Assembly: GCA_963757525.1 (NCBI GenBank)
Contig: CAVWRM010000001.1
Span: 3,591,862 to 3,655,861 of the forward strand
Direction: 5' to 3'
Length of the DNA stretch: 64,000 nt
Source of the DNA: an uncultured Gemmatimonadales bacterium
GTDB lineage: Bacteria; Gemmatimonadota; Gemmatimonadetes; Gemmatimonadales; GWC2-71-9
Each line of letters opens with the position of its first letter. Position 1 is the first letter of the stretch. Below the pieces are notes generated by a model that saw nothing but the letters and a program-made list of their open reading frames with translations, was not told where the DNA came from and made no database searches. The translations under genes were made by a program, and so were the position numbers. Positions 22,491 through 39,824 of this stretch are shown in pieces.

Positions 22491-22847
22491 TCAGGGTCGG
22501 TCGAACTCCATGATCGGCCGCACCTCGATCGAGCCCAGGCGTGCGGAGGGAATGCGAGAGGCCACCTGAATCGCATCGTTGAGATCCTTGGCGTTGATGA
22601 GGTAGAACCCGCCGAGCTGCTCCTTGGTCTCCGCGAAGGGACCATCGGTCGTCGCCATCTTACCGTTGCGGACCCGGACGGTGGTGGCCGTCTGAACCGG
22701 CTGCAGGGCCTCGCCGCCGATGTACTGGCCGCTCTTTCGAATGCCCTCCGTGAAGGCAAAGTACTCTCCCATGAAGGCTTCGGACTCCTTCGGGGACATG
22801 CCCGCGACCTTCTTCTCGTCGTCGTAGATCAGGCAGAGGTATCGCAT
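22491..22847 (-). CDS. YciI family (DGPF domain) protein
   Basis: TDGPFAETKEQLGGFYLI, GSIEVRP. Confidence 0.95.
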   Translation of the reverse strand: MRYLCLIYDDEKKVAGMSPKESEAFMGEYFAFTEGIRKSGQYIGGEALQPVQTATTVRVRNGKMATTDGPFAETKEQLGGFYLINAKDLNDAIQVASRIPSARLGSIEVRPIMEFDRP

Positions 22848-22888: not shown

Positions 22889-22917
22889 TAGTCGTTCGGG
22901 GGAGCACCAAATCGACA
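22889..22917 (-). promoter_or_regulatory. ECF42-type promoter upstream of the YciI/DGPF gene
   Basis: minus strand TGTCGA (22917-22912)-N17-CGACTA; matches the described ECF42 TGTCGA / CG(A/T)C elements. Confidence 0.75.
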
Positions 22918-35029: not shown

Positions 35030-35605
35030 CTACGGATTGTAGATCGATCCGCCCTGGCGCTGGTACAGCTCGAGGACGGCGACCGCTTCCCCGCGGAGCA
35101 CCCCCCGGCTCACCTCGACCCCGCGCGATTCGAGATAGGCGTAGGACTCCGGAAAGACGGGGCCCTCGTCGAAGCCCACCGCCGTCGCGTCGGTCCGATC
35201 GGCGCCGGTCACGAGGCGCCGAACTCCGCTCCAGAGGGCCGCGCCGAGACACATGGCGCAGGGATCGCACGAGGTGAAGAGCTCGTGCTGGGCCAGACCG
35301 GGCCCGAGCAGGGTGTACGAGCCCACCCGCTGCTCCGCCAGCATGAGCGCCAGCACCTCGGCGTGCAGCACGCTGTTGTTGAGCCGGGTGACGCTGTTCA
35401 CGCCTACCGCGACGAGGACCCCGCTTCCGATCTCGAACACCGCCGCGCCGAACGGTCCGCCGGCGCCGCGCAGCACGTTCTGGCGGGACAGCTCGATGGC
35501 GAGCGCCATCTTGCCGTCGTCGGTAACCCGGCGGGTCCCCCAGTCGACCACGTCCCTGGTCCATTCCGGACACCCTGCCGTAACTACCCTATCATGATCG
35601 GACAC
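35030..35605 (-). CDS. Zn-dependent nucleoside/nucleobase deaminase (guanine deaminase-like)
   Basis: GGPFGA, HAE, PCAMC, GFDEG; GGAG SD before GTG. Confidence 0.88.
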   Translation of the reverse strand: MSDHDRVVTAGCPEWTRDVVDWGTRRVTDDGKMALAIELSRQNVLRGAGGPFGAAVFEIGSGVLVAVGVNSVTRLNNSVLHAEVLALMLAEQRVGSYTLLGPGLAQHELFTSCDPCAMCLGAALWSGVRRLVTGADRTDATAVGFDEGPVFPESYAYLESRGVEVSRGVLRGEAVAVLELYQRQGGSIYNP

Positions 35606-35627
35606 AATACCTCTCCTCAAGGAGCCT

Positions 35628-35703
35628 AAAGCTCAAAGCTCAAAGCTGAAAGCGAGCGAGATTCAGCTTTCAGCTTTCAGCTTTGAGCTTTCAGCTTTCA
35701 GCT
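35628..35703. repeat. inverted pair of heptamer tandem repeats
   Basis: (AAAGCTS)x3+AAAGCGA, short spacer, then (SAGCTTT)x5+CAGCT. Confidence 0.9.
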
Positions 35704-36499
35704 GTTCCACCCTCCGCTCGAGAAATCGACGCTCGGGCCCCTGTTGGGTGAGTGCCAATGCCCGCTGATAGGATTCGCGAGCTTCCGTGGTCTTGCCGAG
35801 CCGCCGGTACAGGTCGGCCCGGGCTGAATACGCCAGGTGATAGGCCCCGAGATCACCGCGCGCCAGGATCGCATCGATCAGCGCGATGCCGGCGCCGGGC
35901 CCGTCGCGCATCGCGATCGCCACCGCACGGTTGAGCGCGACCACCGGCGAGGGGTCGGCCCCGATCAGCACGTCGTACAGCCCCACGATCTGGTCCCAGT
36001 CGGTGGCCGCCGCGGTGGGCGCCCCGCTGTGAACGGCGGCGATGGCCGCCTGCAGCGTGTAGGGGCCGAACCGCCGGGACGAGATCGCGCGCTCCACCAG
36101 GGCCGACCCTTCGGCGATCTGCTCGCGGTTCCAGCGCGAGCGATCCTGATCCTCAAGGAGGATGAGATCGCCCGCCGGCGAGGCTCGGGCGACGCGGCGC
36201 GACTCGGAGAGCAGCATCAACCCGAGCAGGCCCTGCACCTCCGCGTCGGGGAGCAGCTCGAAGAGCAGCCTCCCCAGCCGGATCGCCTCGGCGGACAGAT
36301 CGGCTCTCGTGAGCGAGGTCCCCGAGGAGGCGGAGTAGCCCTCGTTGAAGACGAGATACACCACCCGCAGCACGCCGTCGAGCCTCGCCGGCAGCTCCGC
36401 GGGCGAGGGCACCTCATAGGGGATTCCGGCGTCCCGGATCTTGGCCTTGGCGCGAACGATTCGCTGGGCCACCGTGGGCGCCGCCGAAAGAAAGGCCCG
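35663..36499 (-). pseudogene. 5'-truncated ECF42-like sigma factor (end of region 4 + DUF6596/TPR extension)
   Basis: [43 protein letters not shown]; in-frame TGA at 36509-36511, region 2 absent. Confidence 0.85.
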
Positions 36500-36630
36500 G
36501 AGCGGGCTTCAGCTCCGCGGGCGTTTCCCCCGTTCGCCGCGCGACCAGCGTGTGGGTGGACATGGTCCCTTTCCAGAGCGCTGTGGAGTGTAGCCGGACC
36601 CCGGCATCTTGTGCGAGGCGGCCTCCTGCG

Positions 36631-36659
36631 TGTCGAAACGGGAGCCCGTCGATCGACTA
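36631..36659 (+). promoter_or_regulatory. ECF42-type promoter upstream of the BNR propeller-MoaD operon
   Basis: TGTCGA (36631-36636)-N17-CGACTA, same architecture as upstream of YciI. Confidence 0.75.
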
Positions 36660-36718
36660 CATTCAGGCGGGCCGGGCCCGCCGGTTGGGCCATGTCGCAC
36701 GCACCGAAGGAGACTTCA

Positions 36719-37834
36719 ATGAGCGGAGTACGGGTACTGGTCGGCACGCGCAAAGGCGCGTTCGTCCTGACCTCGGACGGGAAACGCAGCCGATGGGAGG
36801 TCAGCGGCCCACACTTCGCGGGGTGGGAGATCTATCATCTCAAGGGATCGCCGGCCGATCCCGACCGACTCTACGCGTCGCAATCGAGCGGCTGGTCGGG
36901 TCAGGTGATGCAGCGCTCCGATGACGGCGGGAAGACGTGGGAAGCGGTGGGGAACACCTTCGCCTACGACGGCGTGCCGGGCACGCACCAGTGGTATGAC
37001 GGCACCCAGCACCCCTGGGAATTCAAGCGGGTCTGGCATCTCGAGCCGTCACTCACCGACCCGGATACGGTCTTCGCCGGGGTCGAGGACGCGGCGTTGT
37101 TCCGGTCGACCGACGGCGGCAATACCTGGCAGGAGCTGGCCGGCCTCCGTGGTCACGACTCGGGTCCTTCCTGGCAGCCGGGCGCAGGCGGCATGTGTCT
37201 CCATACGATCGTGCAGGACCCCGCGAGGCCGACGCGCATGTTCATCGCCATCTCCGCTGCCGGCGTCTTTCGGACCGACGACGCGGGCGCGACGTGGACG
37301 CCGGTGAATCGCGGGCTTCGCTCCCAGTATATCCCGAACCCCACGGCGGAGGTTGGCCACTGCGTGCACCGGATCGCGATGCACCCCTCGCGCCCGAACG
37401 TGCTGTTCATGCAGAAGCACTGGGACGTGATGCGGAGCGACGACGGGGGCGACTCCTGGGCGGAGATCAGCGGCAATCTCCCGAGTGATTTCGGGTTCCC
37501 CATCGACGTCCACCCGCACGAGCCGGAAACCGTCTACGTGGTCCCGATCAAGAGCGACTCCGAGCACTATCCCCCCGAAGGCAAGCTTCGGGTGTATCGG
37601 AGCCGGAGCGGCGGCAACGAATGGGAGGCGCTCACCAAGGGCCTGCCCCAGAAGGACTGTTACGTGAACGTGCTGCGCGACGCCATGTCGGTGGATTCGC
37701 TCGACGAGTGCGGCGTGTATTTCGGGACCACCGGCGGGCAGGTCTACGCGTCGGCGGACGGCGGCGACAGCTGGGGGCCCATCGTGCGAGACCTTCCCGG
37801 CGTCCTGTCGGTGGAGGTCCAGACGCTGCGATGA
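36719..37834 (+). CDS. BNR/Asp-box beta-propeller protein (sialidase-like, often annotated glycosyl hydrolase)
   Basis: AAGGAG SD; repeated S.DGG.TW Asp boxes; [10 protein letters not shown] start. Confidence 0.9.
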
Positions 37835-38127
37835 TCCGGGTCGCCCTCCCTCAGCACCTGCGGCAGCTGGCCCGGATCGACGGGGAGGTGGCGCTCGAGA
37901 TCGAGGGCCCCCCGACCCAGCGCGCGGTGCTCGACGCGCTCGAGGCACGGTATCCGGTGCTGAGGGGAACGGTCCGGAGCCAGACGGATCAGCGGCGCCG
38001 GCCCTTCATGCGGTTCTTCGCCTGCCAGCAGGACCTCTCGCACCAGAAACCCGACGAGCCGCTGCCGGACGCCGTCGCCTCGGGAGCGGAGCCGTTTCTC
38101 ATCGTGGGCGCCATCGCCGGCGGCTAG
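37831..38127 (+). CDS. MoaD/ThiS family ubiquitin-like protein
   Basis: ATGA overlap; L.ALE..YP.L, RRPF.RFF, C-terminal AIAGG. Confidence 0.9.
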
Positions 38128-38136
38128 CGCGCCCGA

Positions 38137-39288
<1,152 letters not shown>

Positions 39289-39299
39289 GTTCCGCTCCA

Positions 39300-39824
39300 T
39301 CATCGTGGTGGGCGGGTCGCTCCGCGAGTCGGGCCGACCAGCTGCTCGAGCAGCGTCATGGCAGTCGCGGGCGTGTCGGCCTCGAGAAGAGGCGACTCGC
39401 GAACGACCGCCGTGAAGAACGCCCTCGCCGCGGGGGCCGCGCCGAGCAGGATGATCGGACGCCCCGACGCCAGCGACAGGGCGACCTCGGACGCGGTGCC
39501 TGGTCCCTCGACCCCGCACGCCACCACGACGTCGCTGCTGAGAACGTTGATCGCGTTCCTCGCGTCGCCCATGCCGGTGAACACCGCGAGGTCGACGTGC
39601 TCGCTCACCGGCCCGTCGGGCCCCGAAGGCAGGATCCCGACCGTCAGGCTGCCCGCGACCGACTTGGCCCCGGCGCCGGCCGCGTCCATCACGCCGGCGG
39701 GCCGTCCGCCGGTGAGCAGCACCCACCCCGCCTGCGCCACGCGCCGGCCCAACTCATGGGCGGCCTGCCTGGCGGCGGCGGTGCACTCGCCCGCGCCGAC
39801 GATCCCGATGACCGGACGCCGCAT
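39300..39824 (-). CDS. TIGR00725/LOG-like Rossmann-fold protein
   Basis: IGIVGAG, TGG..GVMDA, TGMGDARN.IN, GTASEV. Confidence 0.85.
   Translation of the reverse strand: MRRPVIGIVGAGECTAAARQAAHELGRRVAQAGWVLLTGGRPAGVMDAAGAGAKSVAGSLTVGILPSGPDGPVSEHVDLAVFTGMGDARNAINVLSSDVVVACGVEGPGTASEVALSLASGRPIILLGAAPAARAFFTAVVRESPLLEADTPATAMTLLEQLVGPTRGATRPPR

Follow-up and report, generated by a model that had tools for sequence, protein, structure and literature searches.

A propeller and ubiquitin-like gene pair behind a candidate ECF42-type promoter in a Gemmatimonadales bacterium

The DNA analysed here, hereafter the window, is a stretch of 64,000 nt from the genome of an uncultured Gemmatimonadales bacterium (assembly GCA_963757525.1, contig CAVWRM010000001.1); coordinates are positions within the window, and C1, C2 and C3 denote contigs of the same genome. 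Between 36631 and 38127, a gene for a seven-bladed Asp-box beta-propeller is directly followed by a gene for a ubiquitin-like protein (Ubl), with a motif of the ECF42 type in front of both (table 1). Judging from the sequence, this segment is best explained as a two-gene operon that would be read from an ECF42-type promoter and whose products would act as one unit. An earlier note on this DNA, made from the letters alone, had described the Ubl as ending in GG and as coupled to the propeller through an ATGA overlap, and this is the case: the propeller gene runs from an ATG at 36719 to a TGA at 37832-37834, whereas the Ubl gene starts at 37831, reaches its stop codon at 38125-38127 and encodes a protein ending in IAGG.

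Table 1. Coordinates of the features discussed in the text.
Feature	Coordinates	Strand	Basis
Candidate ECF42-type promoter: -35 TGTCGA (36631-36636), 17-nt spacer, -10 CGACTA (36654-36659)	36631..36659	+	sequence, conservation in relatives
Stem-loop GGCGGGC-CGG-GCCCGCC in the 5' untranslated region, at or near the predicted mRNA 5' end	36666..36682	+	kept in four relatives
Cytoplasmic seven-bladed Asp-box beta-propeller, 371 aa, 3B7F family	36719..37834	+	ribosome site AAGGAG (36707-36712); model, 3B7F
Ubiquitin-like beta-grasp protein, 98 aa, ending in ...VGAIAGG	37831..38127	+	ATG overlaps the propeller stop (ATGA)
ECF42 sigma remnant: sigma-4 end, DUF6596, TPR; sigma-2 missing	35663..36472	-	Pfam, alignment
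Second TGTCGA-N17-CGACTA, candidate YciI promoter	22889..22917	-	same 12 specified bases, same spacing
YciI/DGPF-type gene, usual ECF42 target class	22491..22846	-	PF03795, 81 bits against a threshold of 24

Two sets of orthologous loci were compared with the window: 80 loci from species-representative genomes of other lineages (885,541 nt in total) and 16 loci from the same genus or order; residue conservation was counted over 69 orthologous sequences of the propeller and of the Ubl. The Ubl gene lies directly downstream of the propeller gene at all 80 loci of the first set, with the 4-nt overlap at 59 of them, and at all 16 of the second; the single 46%-identical paralogue looked at (L121) has no Ubl. 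Searches with the propeller and with the Ubl each returned at least 8000 distinct 90%-identity clusters, and at least 592 stretches of species-representative genomes contain relatives. The propeller is 78-86% identical to that of the window in Gemmatimonadota, Acidobacteriota, Actinomycetota, Chloroflexota, Planctomycetota, Verrucomicrobiota, Armatimonadota and others, and 74-85% identical in relatives belonging to the same genus or order, which are no closer than the other phyla (74-86% overall, in more than 10 phyla). Recent horizontal transfer was considered as the cause of this high identity and rejected, since synonymous sites are near saturation: the median proportion of synonymous differences (pS) is 0.59 (synonymous divergence dS about 1.15; GC content at third codon positions, GC3, 0.87) against a non-synonymous divergence (dN) of about 0.12, a sign of strong purifying selection. 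The pair is accessory; three same-genus genomes, 93-96% complete, contain no match to it, and the plasmid collection yielded distant propeller homologues only.

A more distant clade shows the two genes in the reverse order. In Ralstonia, P. aeruginosa, Mitsuaria and Burkholderia, whose propellers are 32-34% identical to that of the window, an 89-aa 'MoaD/ThiS family protein' is encoded directly upstream of the propeller at 4 of 4 annotated loci, and the Ralstonia and P. aeruginosa partners end in SGG and pass the ThiS model PF02597 at 27 bits. Two homologues at 41% identity, from Streptomyces and Fuscovulum, have no ThiS-family neighbour in the PLSDB gene tables used for plasmid-borne homologues, which are incomplete. 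Natural fusions also occur: in three distinct proteins (P0309, P0392 and P0393) a ThiS domain ending in SGG or AGG is followed, after 8-9 residues, by the propeller, while P0257 joins a Ser/Thr protein kinase domain to a propeller of the same family. The two gene orders and the fusions argue for a physical or functional partnership, and the comparison supports propeller and Ubl as a real, tightly conserved module. Prediction of the complex of the two proteins scored 0.16 and 0.07 with alignments A2 and A1, respectively, against a mark of 0.32, scores that speak neither for binding nor against it. Our literature search found no paper describing the pair, and PMC1779556 makes no mention of propeller, BNR, sialidase or WD40.

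The predicted Ubl structure (predicted local distance difference test, pLDDT, 91.2) has the beta-grasp fold of the MoaD/ThiS/CysO/SAMP type. Its best Foldseek match is SAMP1 (3po0; template modelling, TM, score 0.76), the SAMP1 and CysO matches together spanning 0.73-0.76 (the latter being 4n6e_B and 3dwg_C, from complexes with BexX and CysM, respectively); the MoaD-related 1v8c reaches 0.72 and classic MoaD chains 0.57-0.65. At the sequence level, hhalign finds a remote link to the Ralstonia partner (E 2.5e-4), which itself passes PF02597 at 27.7 bits. Residues P7, L10, E38, L44, G46, R49, R56, R57, R61, F62, D68, S70, P79, A96, G97 and G98 are invariant among the orthologues. The C-terminus could be evaluated in 76 open reading frames (ORFs) of the 80 loci (1 was not evaluated and 3 are cut by contig ends): the stop codon comes right after GG in 68, and the other 8 run on for 2-3 residues (5 ORFs), for 18 residues (1), into an AAA ATPase (L042:7110-8864, 585 aa) or into a YjbR domain (L080:1200-1883, 228 aa). 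The last two could be real fusions or lost stop codons.

For the propeller (model pLDDT 83.3), the count of seven blades comes from grouping the strands of the predicted model, and from 3B7F, listed as seven-bladed. 3B7F (Reut_B4987 of Ralstonia eutropha JMP134, deposited as 'glycosyl hydrolase, BNR repeat') is a full-length homologue, with E-values of 1.9e-71 and 1.4e-78, a TM score of 0.89 and 36% identity; unlike the window protein it belongs to a distant clade, whose annotated relatives have a ThiS-family gene before the propeller. After 3B7F, the structural search ranks GH74 enzymes twice as large, DAIP and Ycf48. Read by eye, the N-terminal sequence has no evident signal peptide. The clustered His/Cys motifs pointed out earlier are all present, namely GMCLH (158-162), GHCVH (213-217) and QKHW (232-235), and their residues are mostly invariant among the 69 orthologues, C160 nearly so. 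In the model the innermost strands are 362-369, 38-43, 105-110, 161-166, 216-221, 258-264 and approximately 316-325, and invariant residues stand at or beside their starts: H40, H107, H162, H217 and H265, then R320 and E366/Q368. C160, H214 and C215 immediately precede two of these strands, and a B-C turn holds H234; going by the standard topology of propellers, these four would be on the same face as the inner-strand histidines. Seven of the residues (H40, H162, H214, H217, H234, H265 and R320) are retained in 3B7F, and H162, H217, H234, H265 and R320 also in the Ubl-propeller fusions and in the kinase-propeller fusion, on an alignment read by eye. Several propeller enzymes hold a metal through a ring of histidines on the axis, among them carotenoid cleavage oxygenases, N2O reductase (CuZ) and peptidyl-hydroxyglycine lyase. 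The window propeller would resemble them in having His where the innermost strands of successive blades begin, whereas none of them is among its top 50 Foldseek matches.

The same TGTCGA-N17-CGACTA had been reported upstream of both the pair and the YciI gene, and both copies are indeed there, identical in the 12 specified bases. The first starts 88 nt ahead of the propeller ATG; the second lies 43 nt ahead of the YciI ATG at 22846 (71 nt counted from 22917), and the YciI translation carries the DGPF motif (TDGPFAETKE). The statistics of the window are modest: allowing one mismatch, the 12-base pattern has 2 matches against 0.35 expected, a number reached in 3 of 100 shuffles, and the loose TGTCGA-N16-18-CGWC shows no significant excess in the window (4 against 2.13 expected; 14 of 100 shuffles reach 4). 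The promoter reading is thus owing to the comparison between genomes rather than to these counts. Genome-wide (4.11 Mb scanned), TGTCGA-N17-CGAC occurs at 10 sites against 1 for the reversed motif used as control, and five of the ten precede a YciI gene (3), a YciI remnant (1) or the propeller (1); one of the three YciI genes is then followed by a full-length ECF42 sigma gene. The remaining sites precede an aldo-keto reductase (1) or an RND pump (1), or have no clear context (3). Individual exact sites are C1:1942036 (-), merely 18 nt from the ATG of the aldo-keto reductase, C1:822088 (-), before the RND efflux pump gene, and C1:1075136 (+), before a YciI remnant of 63 aa; judging from sequence, these three may be extra members of the ECF42 set.

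Among the 80 loci, the motif has 52 sites against 7 for the control. It stands at most 300 nt upstream of the propeller at 8 of them, always with a spacing of 17 and CGAC. A scan allowing one mismatch in the -35 box and requiring T before CGWC, within 250 nt, again gives 8 of 80 (L052 is gained and L014 lost), against a background of 0.006 per 250 nt, or about 0.5 expected. At four loci (L032, L034, L046 and L059) the motif stands ahead of a YciI gene in a co-directional array that contains the pair, with a VOC gene between YciI and the pair in L034. Of the nine same-genus loci with enough upstream DNA for this check, three have the motif at -88 to -90; across L107, L108, L109 and L008 the two boxes stand at -88 to -95, as far from the propeller as in the window. 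When these three same-genus relatives, the window and L008 are aligned, conservation is confined to TGTCGA, TCG(A/T)TCGACT, a short hairpin and the ribosome site, and the DNA before the -35 box is unalignable. The extended -10 of the window, G-A-T-CGAC, agrees with the consensus of 33 sites, and a sigma-70 scan of 36300-38500 found no sigma-70-like promoter. These comparisons support the motif as a positionally conserved, putative ECF42-type promoter, for this genus and for a minority of the lineages beyond it. The propeller-Ubl pair is not under ECF42 control as a rule, and at other loci HxlR or ArsR regulators occupy the neighbourhood. The motif scan of orthologous operons that the earlier note had suggested thus finds it upstream of the pair at 8 of the 80 loci and 3 of the 9 same-genus ones and not at the rest; the proposed module stands as a conserved pair, while a place in an ECF42 regulon would apply to part of its range.

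The motif comes close to a palindrome (TGTCGA...TCGACA). At four loci (L027, L032, L063 and L065) it matches on both strands, and at L101:4504-4530 in P. aeruginosa, as at 36631-36659 in the window, the opposite strand reads xGTCGA-N17-CGAC; divergent genes might thus share one site. The stem-loop of table 1 begins 7 nt after the -10 box. It is retained in three same-genus relatives and in L008, which reads GGCGAGCA/TGCTCGCC, both sides having changed, and it may act in the stability or regulation of the mRNA 5' end. No Rfam family matches the region of the pair and the stem-loop. The hairpin was rejected as a family-wide feature: it is confined to the window's own lineage and was not seen in other phyla.

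The ECF42-like sigma remnant said to lie divergently beside the operon is confirmed. It aligns at 50% identity with residues 162-431 of the genome's full-length ECF42 sigma, Pfam recognizes DUF6596 and TPR only, and no frame of 35500-36800 has any trace of a sigma-2 domain; this ORF is a deletion remnant. A terminator-like hairpin (36517-36495) stands immediately upstream of it. Contigs C3 and C1 carry two full-length ECF42 open frames of 442 and 426 aa (an orthologue in L087 was used to check the domain make-up), and either could serve the window promoter. In four relatives of the same genus (L110, L111, L115 and L117), propeller, Ubl and a full-length ECF42 sigma gene are co-directional, with gaps of -8 to 81 nt. 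L110, L111 and L115 lack the motif in the 400 nt ahead of the propeller (L117 is cut at a contig end), and it is absent from the whole of the available sequence of these four loci, so that the sigma gene would be co-transcribed with the pair and not autoregulated. At L106 the sigma gene is divergent and the motif lies on its strand. Including the window, 9 of 11 same-genus loci have a sigma gene or the motif, and the other two (L105 and L112), on short contigs, have neither. Outside the genus, an ECF42 sigma gene lies within 6 kb at 10 of the 80 loci. ECF42 sigma genes are thereby enriched beside the pair. Of the co-occurrence that the earlier note had suggested testing, an ECF42 sigma gene is a neighbour at these 10 loci and YciI at 12, and 70 loci have no sigma gene nearby.

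A study of S. venezuelae reportedly defined the ECF42 consensus TGTCGA / CG(A/T)C and its DGPF targets. In the available excerpt of PMC6180224, the mapped promoters of the S. meliloti ECF42 factor RpoE10 read TGTCGG-N17-CGTC, and its targets are glyoxalase-like and ligand-binding-fold genes adjoining a YCII-sigma operon. Compared with the regulons of RpoE10, of the S. venezuelae ECF42 sigmas and of P. putida ECF-10, the window locus has the same -35 (TGTCGA/G), -10 (CG(A/T)C) and 17-nt spacing, and the YciI/DGPF, glyoxalase-like and SRPBCC-like targets named in the excerpts are the same kinds of genes as surround the pair. In contrast, those excerpts do not name the pair among the targets, and the sigma adjoining it in the window is a remnant.

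The neighbours of the 80 loci were clustered and then named by Pfam. Most recurrent are HxlR (13 loci), YciI (12), the ECF42 sigma (10), VOC/PhnB-like proteins (10 plus 4) and DoxX (8), followed by ArsR (5), DinB (4) and SRPBCC (4), and the proteobacterial clade adds AhpCF, thioredoxin-family, DJ-1 and GST genes. The P. aeruginosa locus comprises YciI, thioredoxin-family, ECF sigma, MFS, VOC and YciI genes and, divergently, MoaD/ThiS, propeller, YbaK and VOC genes, with TGTCGA-N17-CGAC ahead of YciI-VOC genes. We take its sigma gene to be PA1351 and the pair to be PA1355/PA1356. PA1351 is described in the literature as an ECF sigma without anti-sigma, and PA1356 has a single mention, as a colonisation factor, presumably owing to its 'sialidase' label. 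The common theme of these surroundings is thiol, oxidant and electrophile stress, which is a theme and not a function.

As the earlier note had stated, neither an E1 of the MoeB/ThiF type nor MoaE, ThiG or JAB is encoded near the pair; elsewhere in the genome each stands beside its own ThiS-family gene. The single MoaE gene (C1:3365234-3365569), 226 kb from the window, adjoins such a gene at C1:3365586-3365813, and ThiG (C1:2273449-2274183) adjoins its ThiS (C1:2274261-2274452). The sole ThiF-family E1, of the MoeZ type with a rhodanese domain, is on C2 and is fused in frame, without an intervening stop, to a CysO-like Ubl (...SIAGG); a Prok-JAB gene (C2:63978-64328) precedes this ORF (C2:63978-65824 as a whole), in what looks from the sequence like a natural Ubl-E1 fusion with a likely processing peptidase. 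The window Ubl thus lacks the MoaE of a MoaD proper, the ThiG of a ThiS proper and the JAB and MoeZ E1 of a CysO-type carrier and, given these MoaD, ThiS and Ubl-E1 sets elsewhere, would be a fifth carrier-like protein without a known acceptor. The E1 on C2 could serve it in trans. A ThiF-family E1 scores over the cut-off in 47 of 50 pair-carrying genomes and in 11 of 14 control genomes; its presence therefore says little and does not discriminate.

Known carriers and their partners (MoaD-MoaE, ThiS-ThiG, CysO-CysM in 3DWG and CysO-BexX in 4N6E) resemble the window pair in that a GG-ending beta-grasp protein is encoded beside its partner and translationally coupled to it; the Ubl fold matches CysO, SAMP1 and MoaD with TM scores up to 0.76, and a MoeZ-type E1 is encoded in the genome. 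Unlike theirs, the window partner is a seven-bladed Asp-box propeller, the Ubl falls under the Pfam threshold for ThiS, and MoaD-MoaE, ThiS-ThiG and JAB-Ubl-E1 sets already exist in the same genome. We know of no seven-bladed Asp-box propeller serving as the partner of a carrier. Urm1 and the archaeal SAMPs, which are both carriers and modifiers, share with the window Ubl its best structural match and a stress-type genomic context, but no conjugation machinery is linked to the window pair. No conjugates of this Ubl are known to us.

The reading that we tentatively prefer, as a possible one, is that of a sulfur-carrier Ubl with an acceptor-enzyme propeller having a His-lined hub. On this reading, the MoeZ-type ThiF-rhodanese E1 on C2 would adenylate the terminal Gly of the Ubl and convert it to a thiocarboxylate. 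The propeller would be the acceptor enzyme, its central channel lined by H40, H107, H162, H217 and H265, with H214, H234, R320, C160 and C215 near the same opening; the His hub would bind a metal, take in the Ubl tail and pass the sulfur to a substrate yet to be named. In this genus the pair would belong to an ECF42 stress set with YciI, while elsewhere it also sits with VOC/PhnB, DoxX, DinB and SRPBCC genes. What the data show is the gene pair, its folds and conservation, the motif with its own conservation, and the linkage to ECF42 sigma genes; activation by the E1, transfer of sulfur, the metal site and the role in stress are what we infer. If the propeller does accept a Ubl thiocarboxylate, it would represent a new branch of sulfur-transfer chemistry. 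In any case, few bacterial protein sets that lack a function are as conserved as this pair, and the crystal structure of one relative has never been interpreted. The link to ECF42 would indicate when the pair is expressed, which offers a first handle on its use, and it would add a defined, testable member to a regulon whose inducing signal and role remain unknown. The present comparison adds the same-genus propeller-Ubl-sigma operons, the promoter footprint, the clade of named proteobacteria with the order reversed, the natural fusions, the residues held in common with 3B7F and the saturation of synonymous sites.

Several results weigh against this interpretation. At none of the 80 loci is an E1 encoded within 6 kb of the pair, and 3 of the 50 pair-carrying genomes, which are metagenome-assembled genomes of unknown completeness, gave no E1 hit. 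PF02597 scores the Ubl at 12.7 bits against a gathering threshold of 22.5 (E 0.9 in the genome scan), and neither the Ubl profile nor a single-sequence search against PDB sequences retrieved a solved MoaD or ThiS chain. In the three ThiS-propeller fusions the GG is internal, so that a free carboxylate would be unavailable unless the protein is cut, and the kinase-propeller fusion P0257 is as consistent with a binding or sensor domain as with an enzyme. A His-lined metal hub on the propeller axis is a hypothesis drawn from the sequence and a predicted strand map, and C160, C215, H107, H267, H283, C314 and C331 are not retained in 3B7F. Finally, the motif and an ECF42 sigma are both missing from the vicinity of the pair at about 85% of the 80 orthologous loci.

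Some of these points would suit a Ubl permanently bound to the propeller as a non-covalent subunit or lid, its GG tail plugging or ligating the channel with neither adenylation nor sulfur involved. Fusions that retain an internal GG, the lack of a nearby E1, a sequence atypical for ThiS and a translational coupling (59 of 80 loci) that suits equimolar subunits are all in its favour. We nevertheless consider it unlikely, if a serious contender, because the strict A-G-G-stop (68 of 76 ORFs; A96-G98 invariant) is the hallmark of activated carriers, the nearest folds, SAMP1 and CysO, are activated proteins and the proteobacterial partner is a regular ThiS-family member ending in SGG. It is improbable that the Ubl is instead a protein modifier of the Urm1/SAMP type acting under oxidative or electrophile stress, with the propeller as target, receptor or ligase-like partner: SAMP1 is the best structural match, 8 of 76 orthologues carry precursor-like extra residues or domains after GG and the neighbours are of a stress type (HxlR, DoxX, DinB and VOC; AhpCF, thioredoxin-family, DJ-1 and GST in the proteobacterial clade), but the pair has no linked JAB or E1, the one strong JAB of the genome adjoins another Ubl-E1 fusion, and no E2- or E3-like gene recurs nearby. 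The pair could also be part of ECF42 signalling rather than mere output of the regulon, for example as the partner proposed for the TPR/DUF6596 extension of the sigma. An activation of ECF42 by protein interaction, with a partner not known, has been proposed in the available part of a review (PMC8999054), and the propeller-Ubl-sigma order of the four same-genus relatives, with its gaps of -8 to 81 nt, fills a slot that is usually that of YciI; a sigma gene is also near the pair in 10 of 80 loci, and in P. aeruginosa. Such a role is nonetheless quite improbable, as 70 loci have no sigma nearby, the adjoining sigma of the window is broken yet the pair retained, and YciI is the commoner sigma neighbour. 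Its most specific form, that the C-terminal state of the Ubl reports thiol or electrophile stress and that Ubl and propeller together bind and activate TPR/DUF6596 as the missing input of ECF42 sigmas, is a long shot; it would tie ubiquitin-like chemistry to bacterial sigma-factor activation. Either as modifier or as sigma-factor input, the Ubl would define a new bacterial ubiquitin-like pathway.

Two further explanations are very improbable. The propeller could be the glycosyl hydrolase or sialidase of its annotation, with the Ubl as an incidental neighbour, since it has Asp-box (BNR) repeats (Pfam BNR 35.5 bits, Sortilin-Vps10 57.8 bits) and GH74 xyloglucanases are its next structural matches after 3B7F. 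However, the sialidase model BNR_2 reaches 20.4 bits against a cut-off of 31.4; GH74 enzymes have two propellers and about 700-770 residues, against the single 371-aa propeller of the window (target-normalized TM at most 0.36); the N-terminus has no evident signal peptide; and the link to a Ubl holds at 80 of 80 loci and, in reverse order, in a second clade. The function of 3B7F itself is listed as not known in the Asp-box survey (PMC2716378, consulted as an excerpt). Nothing found here backs the hydrolase label that the earlier note had already doubted. Similarly, the two motif copies could be chance matches in GC-rich DNA, as the loose pattern is not enriched in the window and exact TGTCGA-N16/17-CGACTA has just 4 sites genome-wide against 2 for the control. 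This is hardly compatible with a motif position conserved amid diverged surroundings, nor with the excess over expectation upstream of the propeller, over the control in the 80 loci and over the control genome-wide, where half of the sites precede YciI-type genes or the propeller.

The genes flanking the pair in the window encode an S58 (DmpA-type) peptidase (38137-39300, -) and a protein of the cytidine/deoxycytidylate deaminase fold (35030-35620, -); neither is a recurrent neighbour of the pair in other genomes. In the stretch that separates the deaminase gene from the 3' end of the sigma remnant, at 35628-35705, two facing arrays of the heptamers GAAAGCT/AGCTTTC form a long hairpin, which encodes the last residues of the remnant. 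At least 18 arrays of three or more heptamer units occur across the genome, which points to a dispersed element resembling repetitive extragenic palindromes (REP-like).

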